DNA from: Candidatus Micrarchaeia archaeon
GTDB taxonomy: Archaea; Micrarchaeota; Micrarchaeia; Anstonellales; J096
Length of the DNA stretch: 32,512 bases
Reading direction: 5' to 3'
Assembly: GCA_041500865.1 (NCBI GenBank)
Contig: JBGQMY010000011.1
Span: 1 to 32,512, forward strand
Positions 11,972-32,512 of this stretch are shown here, piece after piece (the stretch's first letter is position 1; each line of letters begins with the position of its first letter). Position numbers and translations under genes: made by a program. Below the pieces are notes generated by a model. It searched no databases. It was not told the origin of the DNA and was given only the letters and a program-made list of their open reading frames with translations.

Positions 11972-12622
11972 TTATATCATTTTTCTAAATTTATTTTCTA
12001 AATCTAGAATAGTAATTGTACCTAGAGAACCATAAAGAAAACGATTATATTTTATCGAAGCTACGTCGAATACCGGTGTTCTTTCCGAAATAATATCTTT
12101 TCCATTTATATGGATCGAAATCCATAAATATAATGGTTCTTTATCCCAATTAGGTGTTTCTTCATTAATAAATAGTTCCGGAACTCCTTGATTATAATAG
12201 AGGTGCATATCATCTTTATGTACCGGACTCAAACGAACAATACTTTTTAGATTGTTTATGTTACGGAAATCAAAAGAGAGAGATAAGTTTACTGATTCAC
12301 CAGAACGAATAGTTTGAGGAAGATCTGATAAAAATGGTTTTTCACTATGTATTTTTCCTCCTGAGGTTTGTTTTAACATACCAACTGCATCAGTTATTGA
12401 AATAGTATTAGCTGTTTCATTTAATATTACAACATTTGTTGTGATACTAATACCAACTAATTTATTATCAACTTTTAATTCTTCAAAGGTACCATAAGAG
12501 CTTACGATCTCAACTTTCTTTTTAGAATTTTTCCAGCGATCATATATAAGAAATAAAACACCAAATCCTCCAAGAGCACTTATTATTTGAAAAAGTAAAA
12601 AAATTATATTCCAAATGTCCAT
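11972..12622 (-). CDS. AT-rich hypothetical protein with N-terminal transmembrane helix
   Basis: 216-aa ORF in visibly AT-rich DNA; hydrophobic N-terminus IWNIIFLLFQIISALGGFGVLFLIY followed by DRWKNSKKK. Confidence 0.75.
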   Translation of the reverse strand: MDIWNIIFLLFQIISALGGFGVLFLIYDRWKNSKKKVEIVSSYGTFEELKVDNKLVGISITTNVVILNETANTISITDAVGMLKQTSGGKIHSEKPFLSDLPQTIRSGESVNLSLSFDFRNINNLKSIVRLSPVHKDDMHLYYNQGVPELFINEETPNWDKEPLYLWISIHINGKDIISERTPVFDVASIKYNRFLYGSLGTITILDLENKFRKMI

Positions 12623-19903: not shown

Positions 19904-20440
19904 ATGGTCAATCCCTGCCTGCTTTGCGACGCCAAATGCTGCAGGGACTATATGGTATGCGTGACGCCCTTTGACGTACTTAGGATAGCGAAGAACACCG
20001 GCTTGAAGCCTGAAAAGTTCTCGGCCCTTTATGCCAAAAACGTCTTCAAGTACGATTTGGACACCGCCATTGAGACAAAGGGCGGAAAGCAGTATCTGCT
20101 TTACCTTAAGTCGCCACCGTGCCCGTTCCTTGCGAAGAACGGCGACTGCACCATTTACGGCTTTTCTCCGCTCGTGTGCAGGGTCTACCCTTACACGGAG
20201 AAGGGGGGGCTGAAGAAGGGCCCGAAATGCGGATTTTTCAACAGGCTGCTTTTCAGGATGTCAAAGCCTGAAGCGGTCGGCCAGTACAACGACGAATATG
20301 CCCTTTACGTCAGGATAGCCGCACGGTGGAACCGCAGGAAGGGGACGAAGGAGGAAGCATTTAGGTTCATAATGGCTGAGGCGGCCAAGGAAACGGAGGC
20401 AAGGAAGTCTGCATTGGACGTATTCAAGGACAGAGACTAA
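19904..20440 (+). CDS. YkgJ/UPF0153 family Cys-cluster (Zn/Fe-chelating) protein
   Basis: CLLCDAKCC ... PCPFL ... CTIYGFSPLVCRVYPY. Confidence 0.85.
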   Translation: MVNPCLLCDAKCCRDYMVCVTPFDVLRIAKNTGLKPEKFSALYAKNVFKYDLDTAIETKGGKQYLLYLKSPPCPFLAKNGDCTIYGFSPLVCRVYPYTEKGGLKKGPKCGFFNRLLFRMSKPEAVGQYNDEYALYVRIAARWNRRKGTKEEAFRFIMAEAAKETEARKSALDVFKDRD

Positions 20441-20551: not shown

Positions 20552-20567
20552 AAGTCCTTTCTTTCCT

Positions 20568-20611
20568 AAGGGAACCAAGGTCCCCTTGAAGCCTTTTGGG
20601 AAAAGGCTTCA
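20568..20611. repeat. Two adjacent inverted repeats downstream of tRNA-Ala
   Basis: AAGGGAACC-AA-GGTCCCCTT (20568-20587, one mismatch) and perfect TGAAGCCTTTT-GGG-AAAAGGCTTCA (20587-20611). Confidence 0.6.
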
Positions 20612-20713
20612 GCGAAAAACGACAAAGCTCAACCTTCCTTTTGTTTGGCACTTGGGTTCAAAAGAAGGCATTTTGGAAAAAGCCCTTGGGGAAAAAGAAA
20701 CTATTAGCGCCTA

Positions 20714-21180: not shown

Positions 21181-21251
21181 GCGGTTGTAGTCTAGTGGTA
21201 GGATACGAGCTTCCCAAGCTTGTGACCCGGGTTCAAATCCCGGCAGCCGCA
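21181..21251 (+). tRNA. tRNA-Gly(CCC)
   Basis: Acceptor GCGGTTG/CAGCCGC, anticodon arm CGAGC-TTCCCAA-GCTTG, T-loop GGTTCAAATCC; TTTTAAAA upstream; no intron, CCA not encoded. Confidence 0.96.
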
Positions 21252-21307
21252 CTGTGTGTATGCAAGGGGTTTGGGCCCGGAGGGTTCAAATCCCGGCAGC
21301 CGCACTG
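21229..21307 (+). repeat. 26-bp direct repeat of the tRNA-Gly 3' end (att-like)
   Basis: GGGTTCAAATCCCGGCAGCCGCACTG at 21229-21254 and 21282-21307, separated by 27 bp. Confidence 0.9.
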
Positions 21308-21394
21308 AACCAAGGGGGCTCGGCCCCCTCAGGTCCAAGCTCCTCCCGCTCCCCCAACGATTGGGTTTGAGAGCGAAGGAAGGCAGGTGTCAGG

Positions 21395-22993
21395 ATGGAA
21401 TCCAATAGCCAGCTGTATGGGGTGCTCAACAAGGCGTGGAAGAGCACATGCCGGATAGTGCTTGGGGACGAAATCGGGGAGCTGAAGGATTTCGAGCCGT
21501 GGCTAAGGGAGTACCTTGTTTTGCCGCGCAACGAACGCTCCGAGGTTTCGGGAAAGGACATACGCCTTACAAGGGATTCATATTGCAAGGGCGCGAAGTT
21601 TATGAGCTTCGACGAAGTGGACTTCAGCAAAAAGTTCGAGCCGCTCAGCATAAACAAGATAAAGGACATTGATTCCATAGTGGAGGCGCTGCAGGAGCGG
21701 TTCGTCTACACCGGAAACATCATACTCGGAAACTCGCACTTCGTGGAAGGCAGCAGCAATGTCGTTGACAGCCAGTTCGTCTATGACTCCAACATCGTTT
21801 CAGACTCGAAATACATAGGCATCTCAAGCGAGGCGAGATATTCAGAATGCTGCTTCGGCTGCTACGTCATTGTGGAATCCGCATACTCATTGAAAACCAG
21901 CGGCGGCAAGCAGACGCGCTGCTTCGAATGCCATTTCTGCCAAAGGTCAACGGACTCGTACTATTCCGTGCAGAGCCAGGGCTGCAGCAACTGCATGTTC
22001 ACGTTTGGAATGAGGAACGGGACATATTGCATAGGCAACCTGCAGGTTCCGCGCGACAAGTACCTTGAGCTCAAAAAGAAGATCATTGGCGAGGTTTCCG
22101 GAATATTGAAAAAAGAAAAGAGGGTTTTCTCTGTCTTGGACCTGGTTGGGGGCGCACAGAGGCGCAACCCGAAACCGTCCTTGAGGATTGCGCCTCCCCA
22201 GCAGGCAAGGTTCGACATTGGGCCCATAGAGGACGCATTTGAGTCCACATCCTCCATTGTCCTGGGAAAAAAGCTCTCGGGCGTGGATTCGTATGCGGCA
22301 TACCTCCAAAGGAACTCCCTGCCAAACGTATTCGTAAAATCCGCGCTTACAGGAAGGAAAATCGCAATCGGGGGGCATATAGCCCATCTTGTCGGGCTAT
22401 TTGGCATGGGGAACAGGACGATTGACGGAGAGGAGATTGTTGAGATAGGCAAGATGAAGATTGACGAAAAACGGCTCAATGACCTTAGGGCGGAACCGGA
22501 GGTTCTTACAGAGATTCTTGCGCCGATTGCATATGCCGGCCTGGACACTGTGGACGGCAACAACCAGAACATCGGCTCCTCCACGATAATGATAGACAGC
22601 TCCGACTGCTACAACGGCTCCTCCTTCATCAAGGACAAGAAATGCGCGTTTTGCCACTGGCCGCGCGAATCGGAATGCGTGTTCGGGTCATCAGCGCTGT
22701 TCAAGTCCTCATTCTGCATAAACTGTTTCCATTCCAAGAACATCACCAGGGCTTTCGAATTGGACAACTGCAACAACTGCTCCGACGCCTATTTCATGCA
22801 CAACTGCGAGAACGTCCATGATTCCATGTTTTGTTTTAATGTGAAGAACCTCAGGAATGCCATCGGCAATGCGGCGATGCCCCTGGACAAATACAAATCA
22901 GCCAAGAAATCCATATTGGAGCAGATTGTTTCGGAGATTGAGAAGAAGAAAACCCTGAAATGGGATATTTACAACATTGGGTGCGCGAAATGA
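21395..22993 (+). CDS. Cys/Ser-rich bipartite repeat protein, tandem paralog 1 of at least 7 (function unknown)
   Basis: 532 aa; starts LNKAWKSTC..LG.EIGEL; two internal repeat modules; ends HNCENVHDSMFCFNVKNLRNAIGN...LKWDIYNIGCAK; GCAGGTG SD-like sequence upstream. Confidence 0.9.
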   Translation: MESNSQLYGVLNKAWKSTCRIVLGDEIGELKDFEPWLREYLVLPRNERSEVSGKDIRLTRDSYCKGAKFMSFDEVDFSKKFEPLSINKIKDIDSIVEALQERFVYTGNIILGNSHFVEGSSNVVDSQFVYDSNIVSDSKYIGISSEARYSECCFGCYVIVESAYSLKTSGGKQTRCFECHFCQRSTDSYYSVQSQGCSNCMFTFGMRNGTYCIGNLQVPRDKYLELKKKIIGEVSGILKKEKRVFSVLDLVGGAQRRNPKPSLRIAPPQQARFDIGPIEDAFESTSSIVLGKKLSGVDSYAAYLQRNSLPNVFVKSALTGRKIAIGGHIAHLVGLFGMGNRTIDGEEIVEIGKMKIDEKRLNDLRAEPEVLTEILAPIAYAGLDTVDGNNQNIGSSTIMIDSSDCYNGSSFIKDKKCAFCHWPRESECVFGSSALFKSSFCINCFHSKNITRAFELDNCNNCSDAYFMHNCENVHDSMFCFNVKNLRNAIGNAAMPLDKYKSAKKSILEQIVSEIEKKKTLKWDIYNIGCAK

Positions 22994-24579
22994 CATCTGA
23001 AACATATGAGACGCTCAACAAGGCATGGAAGTCCACTTGCAAGGTGCTGCTCGGCGACGAAATAGGGGAGCTTGGCGATTTCAAGGGATACCTGAACCGC
23101 AACATCGAGCCAATCAGCCAAAGAAAGTCCGTTGTTTCCGGCAAGGAGATAACGATTTCCGACGAGGGATTCTGCAAGTCCGCAAGCTTCATCGGCAACG
23201 ACGAGATAGCGCAATTCGAAAAAAGCGTTCCAGGATCCAAGCTGGACATGAACGAGATAAAGGACATAGACTCCATAGCGGATGCCCTGTCCGAAAGGCT
23301 GGCCTATTCGGGAAGCGTGCTGCTGGGGGGATGCAGCTCCATTGAGAGCTCGCACCGTTGCACCGATTCGCATTTCATCATGGATTCGCACGAGATGATA
23401 GGATGCAAGTACGGCGCGTATTGCTCCCTGCTGCGCGACTGCGAATACGCGTTCGGCTGCAACTTCACCGGAGAGGGGAAATTCGGCATAAACTGCACGC
23501 AGTTCTTCCATTCAAGCCGTTGTTTCGAGGCGGTGCTCACCATGGTCAGCTCAGACTGCCATTACACCGCGAACATGGAGGCGTGCGCGAACTGCATGTT
23601 CTCGTTCAACCTGAAAGGCAAGTCCAACTGCATAGGCAACCTCGAGCTTCCCAAGGACAAGTTCAGCGGAATAAAGGCCGGCCTCCTGGCTCAGATAAGG
23701 GACGAACTGAAGGCAAAAAAGGGCGTGATGGGGGTTGCGGAGCTTCTTTCCTGGGGCAAGCCTGCGCCGAAGGCCCTGGCCAAAGGGTTGCAAACGGCGT
23801 TCAGGCCGGGCAAGCCGCCGCAGAAAGAGGTCGAGAAGGCGTTCTCCGACACCGCGGAGATACTGTTCGGCAAGAGGCTTTCCGGCCTTGCGGCATGCCA
23901 AGACTGGCTTTTCAGGCACGTAAGGACCCCGATTTCGCAAACTTCGGCAAGCAGCGGCAAGCTTATCCACGTGAACCCGGTCAGGGGATACACGGCATGG
24001 GCGGGCGCCGCCGTCTCCAGGGACGAGGCGGACGGGCTCGGGAAAAGCGGCATTTCGGCGGAAAATGCGGAAAAAATGTCGCTCTCCGGCGCAAAGGAGG
24101 CCCTGAAGGCCATAAGCTACTCGACTTCCGAGCTTGTCAGGGGGATGAACTCCTCGGTCGAGGAGTGCGTGAACTACTTCGATTCCTCGGACTGCTTCGG
24201 GGGCTGCGCAATCGTCGTGGACAAGAGAAGCGCCTACTCGTTCTACATCCGCGAATGCGAATACATGTTCGGGTGCGAGATGGCGTATTACTCCAAGTTT
24301 TGCATGAAATGCTACCATTCTGCAAGCCTGTCCCGCTGTTTCGAGGTCTTGGACTCCAAATCATCGTCGGACTGCTATTTCTGCCACAACGTGGAGAATG
24401 TCCACGACTCCATGTTCTGCTTCAATGCCAAGAACTTAAGGCACGCGATTGGAAACGTTCAGCTGGCTCCCGAGGCATACAGGCAGGCCAAGAAAGCCAT
24501 CATCGGCCAGATTGCATCAGAGATTGAAAGCAAAAAATCCCTGAAATGGGACATCTACAACATAGGGTGCGCCAAATGA
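22990..24579 (+). CDS. Cys/Ser-rich bipartite repeat protein, paralog 2
   Basis: True start MTSETYETLNKAW at the ATGA overlap (529 aa); same architecture as paralog 1. Confidence 0.9.
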   Translation: MTSETYETLNKAWKSTCKVLLGDEIGELGDFKGYLNRNIEPISQRKSVVSGKEITISDEGFCKSASFIGNDEIAQFEKSVPGSKLDMNEIKDIDSIADALSERLAYSGSVLLGGCSSIESSHRCTDSHFIMDSHEMIGCKYGAYCSLLRDCEYAFGCNFTGEGKFGINCTQFFHSSRCFEAVLTMVSSDCHYTANMEACANCMFSFNLKGKSNCIGNLELPKDKFSGIKAGLLAQIRDELKAKKGVMGVAELLSWGKPAPKALAKGLQTAFRPGKPPQKEVEKAFSDTAEILFGKRLSGLAACQDWLFRHVRTPISQTSASSGKLIHVNPVRGYTAWAGAAVSRDEADGLGKSGISAENAEKMSLSGAKEALKAISYSTSELVRGMNSSVEECVNYFDSSDCFGGCAIVVDKRSAYSFYIRECEYMFGCEMAYYSKFCMKCYHSASLSRCFEVLDSKSSSDCYFCHNVENVHDSMFCFNAKNLRHAIGNVQLAPEAYRQAKKAIIGQIASEIESKKSLKWDIYNIGCAK

Positions 24580-26156
24580 CTTCCCAAACGTATGAGACGT
24601 TGAATAAAGCGTGGAAATCCACGTGCCGGGTCCTGCTTGGCGACGAGCTTGGGGAGCTAAAGGACAACGAAGCATGGCTGTCTGAGTTTATCGAGCCTCG
24701 CGGAACAAGAAAATCTGCAATCTCAGGAAAAGATACTTATCCTTCAGTAGACGATTACTGCAACGGCGCGAAGTTCATAAGCTTCGACGAAATCGACTTT
24801 GGCAGGAAGTTTGAGCCTTTGAACATAAATGAGATAAAGGACATCGACAGCGCCCTTGGCGCGATAAAGGAAAGGATGTATTATGCAGGAAACATAATGC
24901 TCGGCAAGTCCAGGCTGGTCGAGGGCAGCTCAAACGTCACGGACAGCATCGGCATATACAGGTCGTATTTCGCAGACGGGTGCGAGTATGCCGCGCATTG
25001 CATAAACACAAAGGCTTCAAAATACATATTCGGAATCAATGGATCGGCATTTATGGACTACGCGATCCGCTCTATCATGAGCGGGCCAAGATGCCAGAGG
25101 ATTTTCGAGAGCTATTGGGTTTTGGACGCATCTGACATATACTATTCCTCCAACCTGGAAGGATGCAGCGACTGCCTGTTCTGCTTCAACCTGCGCGGCA
25201 GGAGGAACGCGATTGGCAACCTTCAGCTGCCGAAAGACAAGTACCTCCAGCTGAAAAAGAAGCTTGTTGCGGATATGCTTGAGCATGCCAAAAGCAGGAA
25301 AACTTCATTTATGGGCCTGCTGGCAGGATTGGGGAGGGAAAAAGTTGGCATAGACATAGAAAGAAAGGAAAAAGAGCCTTTTGATATTGCTCCTGTCCAG
25401 GAGGCGTTTGAGACGACATACAAGATAATGCTGGGCAGGAAGCCCGGAAACATTGACAGCTACGGCAAATGGTTGGAGAAGAGGCGCATCCCGGAAGTTG
25501 TGGAAATAACGGACACTGCGTCCAATGGGGGACCGATGCAGTTCGGCATGGTTCCAGGGACCGAGAAACTGCCGAGGCACAGGATCATATCCGAGTATGA
25601 GGCAGCGGCGCTTGCCGAGAACCCTATCGCATTGAACGAAAGGGAAGCCGAAGGACTTTCGCTTGACAACCCCGCCCCGCTGTCCAAGCTCGCGTTCTCA
25701 ATAGTGATGTCTTCGCTTGGCAAGAACCGGAACCTTGGAAAGGCGATAGGGAACATGAACGCTTCGGACTGCTATGCCGGCCTAGGATATGTTGAGACAA
25801 AGTACTGCGGATTCTGCTTCTGGCCAAGGGAATCGTCATACATATTCGGCTCGTGCATGGCGTTCAACAGCTCGTTCTGCATAAAGTCCTATTATTCCAA
25901 GAGGATAACGCGCGCATTTGAGGTTGACAGCTGCACAGACTGCGCTGACATCTATTATGCGCACAATTGCGAGAACGTGCATGATTCCATGTTCTGCTTC
26001 AACGTAAAAAACCTGAGGAATGCGATAGGCAACGGAGTTTTGCCTTTGGAAAAATACAAGGCAGTCAAGAAATCATTGGTTGGGCAGATTGCGAATGAGC
26101 TGGAGAAGAAGAAAGACCTAAAATGGGATATTTACAACATTGGGTGCGCGAAATGA
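24576..26156 (+). CDS. Cys/Ser-rich bipartite repeat protein, paralog 3
   Basis: Start MTSQTYETLNKAW at the ATGA overlap (526 aa). Confidence 0.9.
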   Translation: MTSQTYETLNKAWKSTCRVLLGDELGELKDNEAWLSEFIEPRGTRKSAISGKDTYPSVDDYCNGAKFISFDEIDFGRKFEPLNINEIKDIDSALGAIKERMYYAGNIMLGKSRLVEGSSNVTDSIGIYRSYFADGCEYAAHCINTKASKYIFGINGSAFMDYAIRSIMSGPRCQRIFESYWVLDASDIYYSSNLEGCSDCLFCFNLRGRRNAIGNLQLPKDKYLQLKKKLVADMLEHAKSRKTSFMGLLAGLGREKVGIDIERKEKEPFDIAPVQEAFETTYKIMLGRKPGNIDSYGKWLEKRRIPEVVEITDTASNGGPMQFGMVPGTEKLPRHRIISEYEAAALAENPIALNEREAEGLSLDNPAPLSKLAFSIVMSSLGKNRNLGKAIGNMNASDCYAGLGYVETKYCGFCFWPRESSYIFGSCMAFNSSFCIKSYYSKRITRAFEVDSCTDCADIYYAHNCENVHDSMFCFNVKNLRNAIGNGVLPLEKYKAVKKSLVGQIANELEKKKDLKWDIYNIGCAK

Positions 26157-27727
26157 CATCACAGACGTATGAAACGGTCAACAAGGCATGGAAGCAGACA
26201 TGCAAGGTCATATTCGGGGAGGAAATAGGCGAGCTTAAGGAATATGAGGACTGGCTGTGGAAATACAACAAGTCCGAATGGGCAAAAAGGAAATCCGCGT
26301 CAGGGAAGGATGTTTATACTTCCATAAAGCATTATTGCGGCAAGGCAAGGTTCATGTCGCTGGATGATTTGGACTTTTCCAAAAAATACGCGCCGCTGGG
26401 CATAAACGAGATAAAGGACATTGATTCCATAGTTGAAGCCCTGCAGGAGAGGTTCGTCTACACCGGAAACATAGTGTTGGGCAACTCCAAGGACGTGGAT
26501 GGAAGCTCGGACATACACAACTCGTTCCATGTCCTGGACTGCAGCATCGCAAATGATTGCGAATACGTAGCATACAGCTATATTTCCAGGAATGCCAAAT
26601 ACATGTTCGGCTGCTCAACAACAGGCGCATCCCAGTTCATGATAGGGTGCCATAACAGCACGGCAAGCGCAAGGTGCCTTGACAGCTGGAGCGCATATTG
26701 CGCAGACCTGTATTTCTGCTTCAACTGCGACAACGTGCAGGACGCGATGTTCTCGTTTGGCTTAAAGAACAAAAGGAATGCGATAGGCAACCTAGAACTG
26801 CCGAGGGACAGGTATGCAGAGCTGAAAAAGAAGCTTGTCGCAGAGATGGCCGTTGATTTGAAGGGCCGCAAGTCCCTGCCGTCTTTGATAGACATGGTTT
26901 CTGGAGACGGCAGAAAGCCGGACATTGACCGGTCAATCTTCGATAATGCCGAAGAGGAACAGGACATGAAGCCCATGGAAGAGGCTTTCAGCGAAACAAC
27001 TGGCATAATACTGGGCAAGAGGCTTGTCGGGATTGACAAATATGGCAAGTGGCTGGGAAGGTATGCCACTCCGATAGAAATATTGAAATCCGCAATGACT
27101 GGAAGGAAGGTATACCACGGCTCCTTGTCCCCGCCGTATGCGCAATTCCCGAAAGACAGGCTGGTAAAGGAAAGGGAGTCCAGGAAGATCGCGGAAGCCA
27201 TGAGATTGGGGGAAGGAGAGATAAAATCCGTGAAAAGCATAATGGGCAGCATGTGGAAGATAGCATTCTTCACCACCGAGTTCAGAATCAAGGAAAATAG
27301 GAATCTCGTAGACGCTCCGGGAGGATACTCATGCGTAAACTGCTATAGGGGAATATATTGGGGAAATAATGAGAATGCGGCATTCTGCTCAGCGACCAGG
27401 GACTCGAAATACATGTTCGGGTGCAACGTCACGTTCTACTCAAGCTTCTGCATAAGAGGAAATTATTCCAGCAACCTCAGCAGGGTGCTGGAAGCAGACT
27501 GCTGCAGGGACTGCACGGATATATATTATTCGCACAACTGCGAAAACGTCCACGATTCCATGTTCTGCTTTAATGTGAAAAACCTGAGGAACGCGATTGG
27601 CAACGGCGTTCTGCCGCTTGAAAAATACAAGGCTGTTAAGAAATCGTTGCTTGAACAAATCGTCTCCGAACTGGAGAAGAAGAAAGACCTAAAATGGGAC
27701 ATCTACAACATCGGGTGCGCGAAATGA
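26153..27727 (+). CDS. Cys/Ser-rich bipartite repeat protein, paralog 4
   Basis: Start MTSQTYETVNKAW at the ATGA overlap (524 aa). Confidence 0.9.
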   Translation: MTSQTYETVNKAWKQTCKVIFGEEIGELKEYEDWLWKYNKSEWAKRKSASGKDVYTSIKHYCGKARFMSLDDLDFSKKYAPLGINEIKDIDSIVEALQERFVYTGNIVLGNSKDVDGSSDIHNSFHVLDCSIANDCEYVAYSYISRNAKYMFGCSTTGASQFMIGCHNSTASARCLDSWSAYCADLYFCFNCDNVQDAMFSFGLKNKRNAIGNLELPRDRYAELKKKLVAEMAVDLKGRKSLPSLIDMVSGDGRKPDIDRSIFDNAEEEQDMKPMEEAFSETTGIILGKRLVGIDKYGKWLGRYATPIEILKSAMTGRKVYHGSLSPPYAQFPKDRLVKERESRKIAEAMRLGEGEIKSVKSIMGSMWKIAFFTTEFRIKENRNLVDAPGGYSCVNCYRGIYWGNNENAAFCSATRDSKYMFGCNVTFYSSFCIRGNYSSNLSRVLEADCCRDCTDIYYSHNCENVHDSMFCFNVKNLRNAIGNGVLPLEKYKAVKKSLLEQIVSELEKKKDLKWDIYNIGCAK

Positions 27728-29304
27728 CATCTGAAACATATGAAACGCTCAACAAGGCATGGAAACAGACATGCAAAATCATATTCGGCGGGGAAGTCGG
27801 CGAGCTAAAGGACTATGAGGCTTGGCTTACGAAGGGCATGGAAAAGCCAAGGAAAAGCAAATCCGCATTGTCCGGGAAGGACGTCTATTCCGCAGTGCCA
27901 TATTACTGCAAGGACGCGCGGTTCATCTCATTTGACGAGATAGACTTTGGAAAAACGTTCGAGCCGCTTAACATAAACCAGGTCAAGGACATTGATTCTA
28001 TTGTTGAGGCGCTGCAGGAGCGGTTCGTTTACACCGGAAACGTCATACTCGGAAACTCCAAGGACATAGAGGGAAGCTCCAACGTGCAGAACTCGTCCCA
28101 CATCTTCGGCTCCACCTTTGCGTTCAACTGCGAATATAACGCATACTGCTATGGCATGACAAGGACCAACAAATACGCCTTCGGCATATTCATGGCAAGC
28201 GCATCCGAATTCATCATAAACGCATATGTCAGCGGAAGAAAGAGCTCAAGGTGCTTCGAGATATGGCACGTTACCGGAAGCAGCGACTGCTACTACTGCT
28301 TCAACTGCGACGGGATGCACGATGTGCTGTTTTCGTTCAACCAAAGGGGAAAAAAGAACATGATAGGCAACCTTGAGCTGCCCAGGGACAAGTATGCCGG
28401 ATTAAAGGCAAAGCTGCTGGCCGAGATGAGGGAAGGGCTTGTTGCGGAAAAGGGGCTGCCTTCGCTTATGGAGATTGTTTCCGGGAGCAAAAAAAGGCCG
28501 GAAATCCGGGAATCGAATGTCAAGGAAGAGGCCAAAACCGCTGATATGGGGGCAATTGAAAAGGCGTTCGGGGAGACTGCCAGAGTCGTTCTTGGCAAGG
28601 AGCTTCACGGCATCGATTCATATGGGGCATGGCTGATGAGGCATATCCCCAATATTGAAAAGGCCAAGTCGTTCCTTAGCGGCAAAACCATATACCGCGG
28701 GCTATTGGCGCCCCATTCGCTCCTTGCAACAGAAAGGCTGGTTACCGAAAAGGAGGCCTGGGCCATAGGCGGAAGCCTTAAGCTAGCCTCAAATGAAATA
28801 GTGTCCCTGGGCTCCATAAAGGAGAATATAGGAAAGATAGCGCTTTTAACTCCCGAACTAAGCGTCGGGGAGAACAGAAACACCCCAGAGGCAATGATAG
28901 TTGACAATTCCATCAATTGCTACAAGGGCATAATGATGTCGGCTGCGGAGAATGCGGGGTTCTGCTATTACCCGAGGGACTCAAAATACATGTTTGGGGA
29001 CCATACTGCGATAAACTCAAACTTCTGCATGAAAGGCAGCTATTCGTCCAACATCACAAGGGCGTTTGAGGTCGACAGCTGCACAGACTGCGCGGACATC
29101 TATTATGCGCACAACTGCGAGAACGTGCACGACTCCATGTTCTGCTTCAACGTCAAGAACGTGAGGAACGCGATTGGCAACGGGGCTTTGCCTTTGGAAA
29201 AATACAAGGCAGTCAAGAAATCCCTGCTTGAACAGATAGTCTCTGAGCTGGAGAAGAAGAAAACACTCAAATGGGACATCTACAACATAGGGTGCGCGGC
29301 ATGA
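27724..29304 (+). CDS. Cys/Ser-rich bipartite repeat protein, paralog 5
   Basis: Start MTSETYETLNKAW at the ATGA overlap (526 aa). Confidence 0.9.
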   Translation: MTSETYETLNKAWKQTCKIIFGGEVGELKDYEAWLTKGMEKPRKSKSALSGKDVYSAVPYYCKDARFISFDEIDFGKTFEPLNINQVKDIDSIVEALQERFVYTGNVILGNSKDIEGSSNVQNSSHIFGSTFAFNCEYNAYCYGMTRTNKYAFGIFMASASEFIINAYVSGRKSSRCFEIWHVTGSSDCYYCFNCDGMHDVLFSFNQRGKKNMIGNLELPRDKYAGLKAKLLAEMREGLVAEKGLPSLMEIVSGSKKRPEIRESNVKEEAKTADMGAIEKAFGETARVVLGKELHGIDSYGAWLMRHIPNIEKAKSFLSGKTIYRGLLAPHSLLATERLVTEKEAWAIGGSLKLASNEIVSLGSIKENIGKIALLTPELSVGENRNTPEAMIVDNSINCYKGIMMSAAENAGFCYYPRDSKYMFGDHTAINSNFCMKGSYSSNITRAFEVDSCTDCADIYYAHNCENVHDSMFCFNVKNVRNAIGNGALPLEKYKAVKKSLLEQIVSELEKKKTLKWDIYNIGCAA

Positions 29305-30884
29305 GGACAAACACTTACATGACCTTGGACAGGATGTGGAGGTCAACATGCAAAATCATGTTCGGCGAGGACGTTGGAGAGCTCAGCGACTACGCCGAAT
29401 GGCTGGCAAAGGACATCGTTTCCGTCAAGGCCCGCAAATCCGCGGTATCCGGAAAGGACGTCTATTTCGCGATAAAGGATTATTGCGACGATGCGAAATT
29501 CATGTCCATAGACGAAGTCAATTTCAGCAGAAGATACGGCATGCCGCTTGACATAAACGAGATAAAGGACATTGACTCCATAACCGAGGCATTCAAGGAG
29601 AGGTTCGCGTATGCCGGCAGCGTAATACTGATGAATTCCAGGGATGTTGAAGCAAGCTCCAATATCCAAAACTCATTCCATATCCTTGGCTCAACGTTCA
29701 TATACGACTCGGAATACATGGCTTATTGCACATACTCAAGGTATTCCAAAAGCCAGTTCGGGACAATCCACGACTCAAACTCATCCTTCCTTGTCAAGGC
29801 ATATGTCACTGACAAGGATGCAAGGTGCCTCGAAGTCATGAACACGCTAAGTTGCAGCGACTGCTGCTATAGCGTCGGGCTGGAAGGGGTCCAAAACGCC
29901 CTTTTCTGCTTCAACCTCAGAAGCAGGTACAACATGATAGGGAACCTGGAGCTTCCGAGGGACAAGTTCGCGGAACTAAGGACCAAGCTGCTTGCGGAGA
30001 TTAGGGACGAATTAAAACGCAACAAGAGCCTGCCGTCCATAGTCGAGCTGGCGTTGGGCTCCAAAAAGAAGCCAAAAATCCCGAAAATCGAATTCAATGA
30101 AAAGGAAGAGATTACGGACAAGGCGCCGGTGGAAAAGGCGTTCAGGGAAACAACGAAAATCGTGCTTGGGAAGGATCTTTCGGGGCTTGACGCATACGGC
30201 AAATGGCTCAGCCGCGGAATACCCGAAGTAAAGGCCGTTCCGTCCGCCGCGACAGGCAAGGCAGTATACCTGGCCAGGGTGATAGACCCGTATGAACAGT
30301 TCCCGAAAGACAGAATAGTCAGGTCAGGAGAATGCGCGGCCCTGGGCGAAGCCATGAATATGGATGAAAAGGACCTATCCTCCTTGGAAACCATAAGGGA
30401 AAACATAGGGAAGATAGCCCTTTTCACGCCTGAGCTGGAGATGGGTGATAACCGGAACCTGATAAGCACGCCCATGGCCAACTCATGCTCCAACTGCTAC
30501 AGCAACCCGGCGCTGTCAAACAACGAGTACTGCGCGTTCTCCCATTGGCCGCGCAACTCCAAATACATCTTCGGCTCCAACCTTGCGCTTTCGTCAAATT
30601 TCTGCATCAGGAGCAACTATTCCGCAAACCTCTCAAGGAGCTTTGAGGTTGACAGCTGCAGCGGCTGCTCCGACATATACTATTCGCACAACTGCGAGAA
30701 CGTCCACGACTCCATGTTCTGCTTCAACGTCAAGAACTTAAAAAATGCGATTGGCAATGCCGTATTAAAGCCGGAGTCATACAAGGAGATAAAGAAGTCC
30801 ATCCTGGAGCAAATCGTTTCCGAGCTGGAGAAGAAAAAGGACCTGGAATGGAGCATATACAATATAGCATGCGGGGGAAAATGA
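29301..30884 (+). CDS. Cys/Ser-rich bipartite repeat protein, paralog 6
   Basis: Start MRTNTYMTLDRMW at the ATGA overlap (527 aa); ends WSIYNIACGGK. Confidence 0.9.
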   Translation: MRTNTYMTLDRMWRSTCKIMFGEDVGELSDYAEWLAKDIVSVKARKSAVSGKDVYFAIKDYCDDAKFMSIDEVNFSRRYGMPLDINEIKDIDSITEAFKERFAYAGSVILMNSRDVEASSNIQNSFHILGSTFIYDSEYMAYCTYSRYSKSQFGTIHDSNSSFLVKAYVTDKDARCLEVMNTLSCSDCCYSVGLEGVQNALFCFNLRSRYNMIGNLELPRDKFAELRTKLLAEIRDELKRNKSLPSIVELALGSKKKPKIPKIEFNEKEEITDKAPVEKAFRETTKIVLGKDLSGLDAYGKWLSRGIPEVKAVPSAATGKAVYLARVIDPYEQFPKDRIVRSGECAALGEAMNMDEKDLSSLETIRENIGKIALFTPELEMGDNRNLISTPMANSCSNCYSNPALSNNEYCAFSHWPRNSKYIFGSNLALSSNFCIRSNYSANLSRSFEVDSCSGCSDIYYSHNCENVHDSMFCFNVKNLKNAIGNAVLKPESYKEIKKSILEQIVSELEKKKDLEWSIYNIACGGK

Positions 30885-30885
30885 G

Positions 30886-32391
30886 ATGGCATCAAGCCAG
30901 CTGTACGATATGCTGAACAAGGCATGGAAAACCACGTGCAAGGTGCTACTTGGCGAGGAGATAGGCGAGCTAAAGAGCTTTGAGGGCTGGCTGAAGCTGA
31001 ATGCTGAGGGCTTGACAGTAAGGAAGTCTGTTTCAGGCAGGGATATATACTCTGCAGTGCCGCACTACTGCAAAAAAGCGAAATTCGTTTCCTTTGACGA
31101 AATAGACTATGGAAAAAAATTCGAGCATCTGAACATAAATGAGATAAAGGATATAGATTCCATAGCCGAGGCGCTTCAGGGGCGTTTTGCATACACCGGA
31201 AACGTCATCTTGGGGAACTCGAAGGATGTGGAAGAAAGTTCGGATATCCAGAACTCGTTCCACGTGCTCGGCTCCAGCTTCGTGTACGACTCGGAATATG
31301 TGGCGCACTGCTCATACATGAGGGGCTGCAAGTACGCATTCGGCTCGGTCCAGGACGTGGAATCAAGCTTCGGCATAAGGTCAATCAACCCTTACAAGAA
31401 CTCGAGGTGCATGGAGGCATGGAGCTGCTTCGGCTGCAGCGACATATACTTCAGCTGCGGCATAGAGAACTCCCGCAACGTGCTCTTCTCGTTCAATGCC
31501 AAGAGCAGGCAAAACTTAATAGGGAACATCGCCCTGGAAAAGGAGAAATTCGCGGAACTGAAGGCAAAGCTGCTGGCCGAGATAGCGGCCGAGCTTAGGG
31601 CAAAAAAAGCCATGACGCCGCTCGTGGACATGCTCAAGGGCGACAAAAGGAGGCCCAAGCTCGGCAAAATCGACACCGCCGAGAGAAGCGACGAAGGCGA
31701 CAAGGCGCCGATAGAGAAGGCGTTCAGGGACACCACGAGGATAGTGCTCGGCAAGGAGCTGCAGGGCATGGACTCCTATGACAGCTGGATGATGAGATAT
31801 GTTCCGGACGTGGAAACCATCAAGTCGTCCGCGACCGGAAGGACGAGCCACCTTGGGCTCGTGAACCCGTATAAGTTCTTTCCGCGGGACAGGCTTGCGA
31901 AGGAGGGCGAAGCCAGGAAGCTCGGGGAAGAGCTGAAAATGGGAGAAAAGGACATTGTTTCGCTGAAAAGCGTGCTGGACAGCCTGTGGAAGATAGCGTT
32001 CTTCAGCTCGGAGGCCACAGTGGGGGAAATCAGGAATATAGTCGGAGGCATACCAATGGTTAACGCCTCGTCCAACTGCTACAGGAGCGCGCTGGTGTCG
32101 GTTGACGAATACTGCGCGTTCTCGTACTGGCCCCGCAACTCCAAATACATATTCGGCTCGGACGAGGCTTTCTTCTCAAGCTTCTGTATAAGGTCGTTCC
32201 ATTCCGAAAGGGCGACAAGGACCTTTGAGATAGACGGGTGCAGGGACTGCGCTGACCTCTATTATTCCCACAACTGCGAGAACGTCCACGATTCCATGTT
32301 TTGTTTTAACGTGAAAAATCTTAGGAACGCGATAGGAAACGGAGTTTTGCCCTTGGAGAAATACAAGGCTGGTGAACTCTCCCAGCACTAA
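30886..32391 (+). pseudogene. Cys/Ser-rich bipartite repeat protein, paralog 7, C-terminally truncated by IS insertion
   Basis: Homology to the other copies stops at ..LEKYKA (nt 32371); about 30 conserved residues are replaced by GELSQH* read from IS DNA; may still be expressed. Confidence 0.8.
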
Positions 32392-32512
32392 AGTGCTGGG
32401 CTTCTCTGCTGATGCGGGATAAACGACGGCATGAACATCTGGCGGCGCTCCTCACTGATGTCCATCGTCCTTGAAAGCTCTTCCGTCTCGTGGTTTTCGA
32501 TATAGTGCCTCA
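32372..32512 (-). mobile_element. IS200/IS605-family insertion sequence, right end (continues beyond window)
   Basis: Minus strand reads GAAGCCCAGCAC-TTTA-GTGCTGGGAGAGTTCAC|, the subterminal hairpin plus TTCAC end typical of IS200/IS605 right ends; the junction coincides with loss of paralog homology. Confidence 0.8.
32388..32512 (-). CDS. tnpA: IS200-type Y1 transposase TnpA, C-terminal fragment
   Basis: Minus frame gives RHYIENHETEELSRTMDISEERRQMFMPSFIPHQQRSPAL*; YIEN(H) resembles the catalytic-Tyr YIxxQ motif; the stop codon falls in the hairpin. Confidence 0.7.
   Translation of the reverse strand, partial: RHYIENHETEELSRTMDISEERRQMFMPSFIPHQQRSPAL

Follow-up and report, generated by a model that had tools for sequence, protein, structure and literature searches.

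We describe here an array of eight homologous genes in a Candidatus Micrarchaeia archaeon and conclude that it is a real, selected and hitherto undescribed set of ATPase-linked, predicted β-solenoid proteins, whose sequences suggest a repertoire function. Seven of the genes lie in the window, that is, the whole 32,512-nucleotide stretch of DNA analyzed (assembly GCA_041500865.1), which is the entire contig C11 of a 36-contig, 1.04-Mb archaeal assembly with a completeness of 92% and bears the RNA polymerase operon at its start. They occupy positions 21395-32391 as co-oriented open reading frames (ORFs) without genes between them, and the array terminates against a convergent ATPase gene beyond the window edge. 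The initial annotation, made from the window sequence, had noticed the seven co-oriented homologs, and this is borne out (36-55% pairwise identity among the window copies); it overlooked the eighth copy, an insertion sequence (IS) in copy 7, and the ATPase, the best available hint at function.

The eighth copy encodes 522 amino acids (aa) and lies at C35:228-1796. The full array thus spans about 12.6 kb, or 1.2% of the assembly, and every family member found in the genome sits within it. Overlaps of stop and start codons by 4 nt link copies 1-6, and a 1-nt gap separates copy 6 from copy 7 (Table 1). A scan for sigma-70 promoters and terminators, ill-suited to archaea, listed no terminator-like site on the + strand inside the array, and RNA data were not listed among the sequencing runs holding the window stretch. 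Copy 7, annotated initially as a truncated 501-aa copy, is indeed shortened, the cause being an IS insertion at 32372 that leaves its last 31 codons on contig C35; seven of the eight copies are intact.

To estimate the ratio of nonsynonymous to synonymous substitution rates (dN/dS), the Nei-Gojobori method was applied against orthologs in loci L033 and L034. Four ortholog pairs were clear and full-length and gave 0.069, 0.162, 0.158 and 0.095; copy 4 was compared three times, with values of 0.11-0.19, so that all seven comparisons fall within 0.07-0.19. The results clearly show that the orthologs are under purifying selection, in keeping with the selection that the initial annotation had supposed, and not near the value of 1 that neutral decay would give. 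Copy 7 itself has an intact 525-aa ortholog in L033 (92.5% identical, dN/dS 0.069). A neutral tandem amplification now in decay could account for the IS insertion in copy 7, but given these ratios, the intactness of the remaining copies and internal stops in only 3 of the 150 family matches listed, it is scarcely credible.

The gene order in L033, a close relative, is 4, 5, 3, 7, 4′, 8, 8′ versus 1-8 in the window genome. A FastTree phylogeny was built from 89 full-length members, without the split A/B forms described below. In it, copies 3-7 group locally with the relative (support 0.83), copies 1, 2 and 8 fall among the proteins of other genomes, and old subfamilies are common to several genomes; support at the deep nodes is often weak. 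Taken together, the low dN/dS of orthologs, the changed order and content and the tree placement allow us to conclude, on sequence grounds, that the array is a product of birth-and-death evolution of individually maintained genes. The initial annotation had left a choice between a repertoire of binding specificities and a stoichiometric heteropolymer; the former is backed by the variable-face test described below, and the latter is disfavoured. A heteropolymer or cytoskeletal filament built from all copies in fixed stoichiometry would profit from the stop/start overlaps, which suggest near-equal synthesis, from the occurrence of the two protein halves either fused or as an A-then-B pair, and from the old shared subfamilies. 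Yet the content varies from one A+B unit, which suffices in L043-L047, to long arrays, order and content differ even in the close relative, copies elsewhere are often scattered and separately flanked by regulators, and helical caps are predicted on both solenoid ends, all of which makes such an assembly improbable.

Each protein is an A-B internal duplication, as initially proposed: the halves align in hhalign with a probability of 100% (E 2e-55, 238 columns). In other genomes, A and B are also found as adjacent separate genes of about 255 aa each, A first. Within the repeats, small residues recur at period 6 and hydrophobic residues at period 12, so the repeat reads as a two-sided coil of 12 residues. 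The AlphaFold2 model of copy 5, based on a 119-sequence alignment, has a mean predicted local distance difference test score (pLDDT) of 89.8 and a predicted template modelling score of 0.89; each half comprises a helical cap, a small beta knuckle, a solenoid with one short strand per six residues, and a closing helix. The proteins are thus predicted to consist of two thin β-solenoids with 12 residues per coil and helical caps. Hydrophobic segments were absent from all eight copies (maximal 19-residue Kyte-Doolittle mean <=1.27), in agreement with the earlier statement that signal peptides and transmembrane (TM) helices are lacking, although no dedicated signal-peptide predictor was run.

The initial annotation recognized no characterized family, and neither did our searches. 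Pfam gave no family for the seven window copies and a single sub-cut-off chance match for copy 8, and the array proteins had no match in NCBIfam, PDB sequences, PADLOC or PHROGs; a full-length match to an enzyme family, which would have spoken against a new system, was not found. Foldseek with the copy 5 model returned nothing at E 0.001 or better from PDB and BFVD, and the best hits of a wide structural search were generic beta-helices within background (Z 5.3). These fold searches used the whole 526-residue model, unsplit by domain, and their blank results are no proof of a new fold. Among thin β-solenoids, the Tenebrio antifreeze protein (1ezg), the Lolium ice-binding protein (3ult) and curli CsgA (8c50) likewise have a narrow coil with small inward residues (Z 4.3-4.5, within background), but our family has no flat Thr ladder, is probably cytoplasmic and has helical caps and A-B pairs. 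A beetle-type antifreeze beta-helix was rejected: the coil period is alike, but the outward sites are hypervariable with about 5% Thr, and a hydrophobic leader is missing.

The copies contain 15-27 Cys each, with 2-7 CxxC motifs, and the B C-terminal motif carries an invariant His. These features, together with weak structural similarity to left-handed beta-helix enzymes (Foldseek E no better than 0.008; Z <=4.8), might suggest that the proteins bind metal or Fe-S clusters, or that they are hexapeptide acyltransferases, carbonic anhydrases or similar enzymes with diversified substrates. Against this stands the placement of the cysteines. Cys, Ser and Ala make up about 60% of rung positions 3 and 6, the small-residue positions predicted to point inward, and in an alignment of 238 proteins these two positions account for 3303 of the 4441 Cys; no Cys is invariant in 119 sequences, and no Cys column exceeds 87% in the 238. 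Therefore the cysteines most likely pack the solenoid core, as far as the alignment can tell, and the absence of an invariant set of Cys ligands speaks against a Zn-finger or Fe-S cluster. Single-module relatives have far fewer Cys. Left-handed hexapeptide helices have 18 residues per coil, unlike the 12 found here; a hexapeptide enzyme was rejected in view of the hydrophobic period of 12, the lack of a Pfam match, the poor Foldseek E values and TM-scores of at most 0.16. A metal-binding or enzymatic role is accordingly given very little credence.

The initial annotation had also described conserved ends and strongly diverged middles. The C-termini are conserved indeed; divergence between copies is in fact concentrated on one solenoid face, in the linker and in the B knuckle. 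The last 70 residues are 90-93% identical in copies 3-5, while synonymous sites differ by 45-68%. Such a high protein identity despite synonymous divergence points to protein-level constraint acting on a common C-terminal module. Gene conversion as the source of the conserved C-termini was ruled out by a synonymous divergence of 45-91% over the last 70 codons of the window copies. The terminal motif aligns positionally with the end of the A half, and its own pLDDT is 93 at residues 511-520 and 78 at 521-526.

To compare the two sides of the coil, alternate rungs were assigned to two faces from the model strands. In solenoid A, identity among paralogs is 46% on face 1 but drops to 24% on face 2, whereas orthologs are 88% identical on both. 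A face test was then carried out on 37 non-overlapping close pairs, which were selected on the remainder of the protein and are not fully independent. In the broader version, 32 hypervariable face-2 sites were 73% identical in close pairs versus 59% for 105 equally variable sites elsewhere (32/37 pairs agree), with 10% versus 12% in distant pairs. The restricted version was confined to 14 outward-type face-2 sites (entropy 3.45 bits, 12% identity in distant pairs) and gave 81% versus 51% at 18 ungapped variable helix sites, in agreement for 33/37 pairs. At the variable face-2 sites, Lys is scarce (1.6% vs. 10%) and Tyr, Phe and Asn are enriched, whereas the outward sites of face 1 are conserved and 39% aromatic. 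This pattern fits fixed, paralog-specific binding surfaces, and the variable positions are predicted by the model to form one outward face. Having one conserved and one variable side is the expected signature of a common scaffold or docking side combined with a copy-specific binding side. Similarly, families of leucine-rich repeat and ankyrin receptors combine a conserved scaffold with one hypervariable, aromatic-rich and Lys-poor face, but their fold is unrelated, and the present proteins are coupled to a motor ATPase in prokaryotes with genomes of about 1 Mb. We regard it as probable that the array is a binding repertoire of some kind, a logic that adaptors, effectors and sensors would share.

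The array is linked to a single-copy ATPase with conserved Walker A/B motifs and a dN/dS of 0.033. Among 301 genomes of the phylum, the solenoid family was found in 62 and the ATPase in 59; both were present in 57, the family only in 5, the ATPase only in 2, and neither in 237. In 2 of the 57, the family matches are short fragments (G032, G138), and one of the five family-only genomes, G218, has a divergent ATPase at E 1e-58. Presence within genera is patchy and matched for both genes (g16 9/22, g14 3/7, g15 4/7, g18 2/6). Twenty loci were chosen by ATPase position, with the exceptions deliberately included: a family gene lay nearby in 16 and was directly adjacent in 13. The adjacent loci often form a co-oriented ATPase-A-B operon; L043-L047 contain minimal operons of ATPase+A+B. 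In addition, three genomes keep an intact ATPase with no solenoid partner (G004, G012) or with nothing more than a distant remnant of 43 codons (G032) (L036:6237-8273, L037:7141-9480, L038:7302-9038); in these three genomes it may have a partner-independent role or may have lost its partner recently.

By motif and fold, the ATPase belongs to the HerA/VirB4/TrwB superfamily (RecA-like P-loop core, Walker A/B and an all-alpha insertion). It scores above the Pfam DUF87 cut-off, matches Pfam TrwB_AAD_bind too, and its model resembles DndH-C (Z 19.6; root-mean-square deviation 3.2 over 248 aligned residues), VirB4 (18.1; 3.2, 252), TrwB (16.9; 4.1, 273) and HerA (15.8; 4.2, 242). It fails every named NCBIfam equivalog cut-off. 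As for an N-terminal HAS barrel like that of HerA, residues 1-199 have no Pfam match, and the fold matches span only 172-465 in searches with the domain folded as part of the whole protein. In the model, the N-terminal 170 residues form a soluble alpha/beta domain without a membrane-length helix (pLDDT mostly 75-94; no hydropathy scan). The tail is highly variable, acidic, Pro-rich and of low complexity, measures from 0 to about 350 aa and often ends in a lysine run (L135:1800-2350; L023:13845-14900).

The ATPase is distinct from the HerA-like gene of the same genome (C12:25885-27390) and from its CedB/VirB4-like ATPase. The latter is unlinked to the array and occurs in 261/301 genomes; because it is near-universal, its co-occurrence with the family is uninformative. 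In the window genome (G000), it stands behind a small membrane gene (L136:4634-7063; C1:83633-86062), and elsewhere on C1 are six tandem multi-TM genes without an NCBIfam match (L137:2768-10364; C1:6767-14363). We consider the CedB/VirB4-like ATPase and the multi-TM genes candidates for a core transfer machinery.

Several known identities were tried for the linked ATPase and rejected. As the archaeal HerA of a HerA-NurA pair it reaches 18 bits against an NCBIfam cut-off of 970, no nurA, mre11 or rad50 neighbours were seen, and a separate HerA-like gene is present. The anti-phage HerA systems (Sir2-HerA, DUF4297-HerA, MADS, Dnd) gave 20-29 bits against cut-offs of 800-850 and at most 47 bits in PADLOC, with no recurring effector. 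CedB and CedD are archaeal Ced DNA-import ATPases (PMC11868833). CedD was the best NCBIfam match for 2 of 3 ATPases tested, yet at 38-52 bits against a cut-off of 600; identity with CedD or CedB was rejected on these scores (<=52 bits), the better CedB-like protein being the different, near-universal gene.

Taken together, the best explanation we can offer, held tentatively and a little short of an even chance, is that the eight selected, paralog-diverse solenoids act as interchangeable cytoplasmic adaptors for one conserved ATPase, in a system of one motor with many adaptors. The conserved surface of a solenoid would dock on the ATPase ring, and its variable face would capture a target particular to that copy, probably a protein; the ATPase would then remodel or translocate the bound target. 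In this scheme we infer the contact between solenoid and ATPase, the formation of a ring, the class of target, a link to the core CedB/VirB4-like membrane machinery, and expression. The plan of one ATPase followed by paralogs recurs with a distant single-module version of the protein, with six paralogs in G218, which speaks for such a scheme.

A number of observations weigh against it. Four genomes with 60-170 contigs and 83-97% completeness (G149, G166, G207, G282) have the family without an ATPase match even at E 1e-8, and G004 and G012 (96-100% complete) have the ATPase without the family; moreover, the genomes are related, so the co-occurrence counts are not independent trials. In the window genome, the ATPase is convergent to the array and not co-transcribed with it, copy 7 is broken by the IS, and none of the three kinds of regulator described below lies near the array. 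As for the solenoids, the model is least confident where solenoid B ends in its conserved part (residues 411-490, pLDDT 67-76), the faces were assigned by DSSP and repeat register and not on model coordinates, and the higher conservation of strands than of helices could partly reflect packing constraints.

The same ATPase fold admits an unlikely alternative, in which the solenoids would be exported effectors or adhesins and the ATPase an anchor-less type IV coupling protein that reads their shared C-terminal module and feeds them into a CedB/VirB4-like channel to the host or a neighbour cell. In its fold the ATPase comes close to TrwB, Cag-β and the coupling complex of Legionella (Z 15.4-16.9), constraint on the C-terminal module acts at the protein level, and both the CedB/VirB4-like ATPase and the six tandem multi-TM genes on C1 could supply a channel. 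Many VirD4-type coupling proteins lie far from virB4 in Patescibacteria (PMC12102498). On the other hand, the terminal motif matches the A-half end and is mostly modelled with confidence, so it may be structural rather than a free signal; no family gene was seen beside channel genes in the loci listed, and a channel ATPase that is nearly everywhere says little by its presence.

Just as doubtful is a repertoire of sensors against viruses or mobile elements, each solenoid detecting a different invader molecule and switching on the HerA-like motor. This would suit the patchy distribution and the birth-and-death turnover, the best fold match to DndH-C, the similarity to the Sir2-HerA, HerA-DUF and TdpAB structures (Z 11.7-14.4) and the weak PADLOC matches to mad8 and HerA. 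But no effector nuclease or NADase recurs beside the ATPase, whose neighbours are mostly housekeeping or metabolic genes, the solenoids match no PADLOC or PHROGs model, and the variable face is conserved between orthologs, with no evident arms-race change.

Two groups of known systems come close to the one described here. HerA with a dedicated partner (HerA-NurA, Sir2-HerA, DUF4297-HerA, DndH, TdpAB) has the same ATPase core fold (Z 11-20) and an equally tight linkage of the partner gene, but the partner here is a repertoire of non-enzymatic-looking solenoids and not a nuclease or NADase, and the ATPase differs in its first 170 residues, which have no match, and in the long low-complexity tail that it often carries. 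Type IV coupling proteins, which work with adaptors according to a motor-plus-adaptor logic, also have this core fold (TrwB, Z 16.9; Helicobacter pylori Cag-β/CagZ, 16.0; the Legionella DotL-containing type IV coupling complex, 15.4). In contrast to them, the ATPase model has no N-terminal transmembrane anchor, no relaxase or channel genes were seen nearby, and the place of their adaptors would be taken by members of one new family, numbering from 1 to more than 8.

The family is unnamed and uncharacterized and, as judged from its sequences, mostly confined to Micrarchaeota. Its profile recovered 1439 representatives (50% clustering) at E up to 0.001 and 333 at up to 1e-30. All named relatives among the 120 listed of 435 are Micrarchaeota, and the best 78 genome loci of 409 confirmed stretches are all titled as Micrarchaeota-lineage or unclassified archaeon. 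Viral contigs gave 352 pattern matches and no confirmed relative, and the family was not found in plasmid or phage collections. A putative database label for Cys-rich proteins of candidate phyla radiation (CPR) bacteria, "CaiB/BaiF family protein", had no occurrence in the literature checked. Literature searches, which excluded supplements (where such genes could be listed as orthogroups) and left most subscription papers out of reach, yielded no description of the family or of the gene pair; in the accessible parts of the respective texts, "solenoid" and "beta-helix" are absent from PMC12102498, and "HerA" from PMC12892359 and PMC8561730.

A single-module, Cys-poorer version of the protein lies directly behind a related ATPase in G042 (1 copy) and G218 (6 copies with a common C-terminus) and aligns to the A half with a probability of 99.7%. 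Among its relatives are proteins from Patescibacteria, 52-55% identical to it (a taxon name is given for 3 of the 120 listed out of 225), and an Atlas search with the B solenoid returned unnamed bacterial clusters at 0.92. The G218 locus (L152:3431-9645, contig C8) belongs to a taxonomic family mostly without the system (2/54 with a match). Given the closeness to Patescibacteria proteins, a cross-domain transfer of the single-module type is possible. More tentative still than the adaptor reading is its extension to a cross-domain system of ultrasmall symbiotic archaea and bacteria with one motor and many readers, in which expandable, individually regulated solenoid receptors with fixed faces would feed one ring translocase with specific macromolecules of host, virus or self origin.

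HTH_10, TrmB or tandem-Lrp regulators were found within about 3 kb in 38/78 family loci, with 24 in 127 kb near family genes versus 9 in 362 kb farther off, a contrast inflated by the fact that the regulator models were built from the neighbours of the family. Near arrays of a few genomes are also pyridoxal phosphate-dependent (PALP) genes (L020:890-2389, L025:13729-15189, L032:12835-14217) and CxxCxxCC genes (window 19904-20440, L023, L024), and their recurrence may reflect common ancestry of the loci.

The initial annotation had placed the array behind a tRNA-Gly gene. The position is real but apparently incidental: tRNA genes occur in 12 of 120 other family or ATPase loci, and none is tRNA-Gly. 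The repeat of about 90 nt that follows this tRNA (Table 1) lies behind all three tRNA-Gly genes and tRNA-Thr(CGT), is thus not array-specific, and also occurs in G211; the other copies in the window genome are at C13:23804-23893, C16:4532-4603 and C2:39974-40119. It matched no Rfam family beyond tRNA, its fold z-score was -1.8, and it may be a small element that targets tRNAs. Dozens of partial copies of another dispersed repeat, which follows tRNA-Ala (window 20552-20713), occur in this genome and in G211. Integration of an island at tRNA-Gly was rejected: the second copy of the tRNA end belongs to the repeat dispersed behind four tRNAs, no integrase was found in the window, and other loci lack tRNA-Gly. 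A search for an empty site in five relatives was uninformative; in the same-genus G211, the missing module is no evidence because both flanks end at contig ends. Elsewhere in the window, a minus-strand ORF of 216 aa at 11972-12622 has no Pfam match and coincides with the sole low-GC kilobase (39%).

Table 1. Coordinates of the array copies and of the features flanking them in the window
Feature	Position	Strand	Description
tRNA-Gly(CCC)	21181..21252	+	Local neighbour, not a conserved part of the system
Dispersed post-tRNA repeat	21282..21370	+	26-nt copy of the tRNA 3′ end plus ~60 nt
Copy 1	21395..22993	+	532 aa, fused A-B double β-solenoid (predicted); own clade apart from copies 3-7
Copy 2	22990..24579	+	529 aa; separated from the other copies in the tree
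Copy 3	24576..26156	+	526 aa; L033 ortholog 75% identical, dN/dS 0.095
Copy 4	26153..27727	+	524 aa; partial orthologs in L033 and L034, 79% identical, dN/dS 0.17-0.19
Copy 5	27724..29304	+	526 aa; used for the structure model; ortholog 77% identical, dN/dS 0.16
Copy 6	29301..30884	+	527 aa; close ortholog absent from the loci examined
Copy 7, 5′ part	30886..32371	+	495 codons, IS-interrupted; the frame enters the element for a few codons, stop at 32391
End of multicopy IS200-type element	32372..32512	-	Y1 transposase C-terminus; contig break here

The element that cuts copy 7 is multicopy. The end found in copy 7 recurs at 7 places in the assembly with varied flanks, the opposite end is followed by the same tetranucleotide in 6/6 occurrences, and a 66-aa fragment matches Pfam Y1_Tnp (E 1e-4; 22.9 bits against a cut-off of 23). 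The C-terminus of a Y1 transposase and a fixed tetranucleotide at one type of end therefore identify the element, at the sequence level, as a member of the IS200/IS605 family, whose members have a short fixed target beside one end and do not duplicate it. Contig C35 opens with the other IS end, continues through the 31 terminal codons of copy 7 and the whole of copy 8, and then reaches the 3′ portion of the convergent ATPase gene. The 5′ portion of that gene is C5:1-1399, at the start of contig C5; both portions meet at the same residue, and the two contigs share a 9-nt overlap. We infer the contig order C11-IS-C35-C5, and this is supported by L033, where the intact copy-7 ortholog, the copy-8 ortholog and the convergent ATPase are all on a single contig. 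Contigs from four DNA runs, which may include the source run, span all 30 bins of the stretch. The IS200-type copies are 99-100% identical, have spread recently and account for several assembly breaks, being found at the ends of contigs C3, C4, C10, C16, C25, C28, C30, C34 and C35; diverged relatives are on C2, C9 and C14.

Small genomes of DPANN archaea and Patescibacteria rarely keep paralogs, and their dealings with hosts, viruses and neighbours are largely unknown. In Micrarchaeota, one study put duplications at about 2% of the inferred gene events (PMC12892359). Here, an assembly of 1.04 Mb spends 1.2% of its length on a selected set of eight paralogs from a single unnamed family linked to one motor. 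The work defines a unit that can be tested: a minimal operon of three genes, a set of positions that may determine specificity, and a conserved module that may serve for docking. Should the adaptor reading prove true, it would represent a new class of motor-coupled recognition repertoire and provide a compact binding scaffold. In case the broader notion of one motor with many readers also holds, the system would be a prokaryotic counterpart of the variable-face receptor families, built on a new scaffold.

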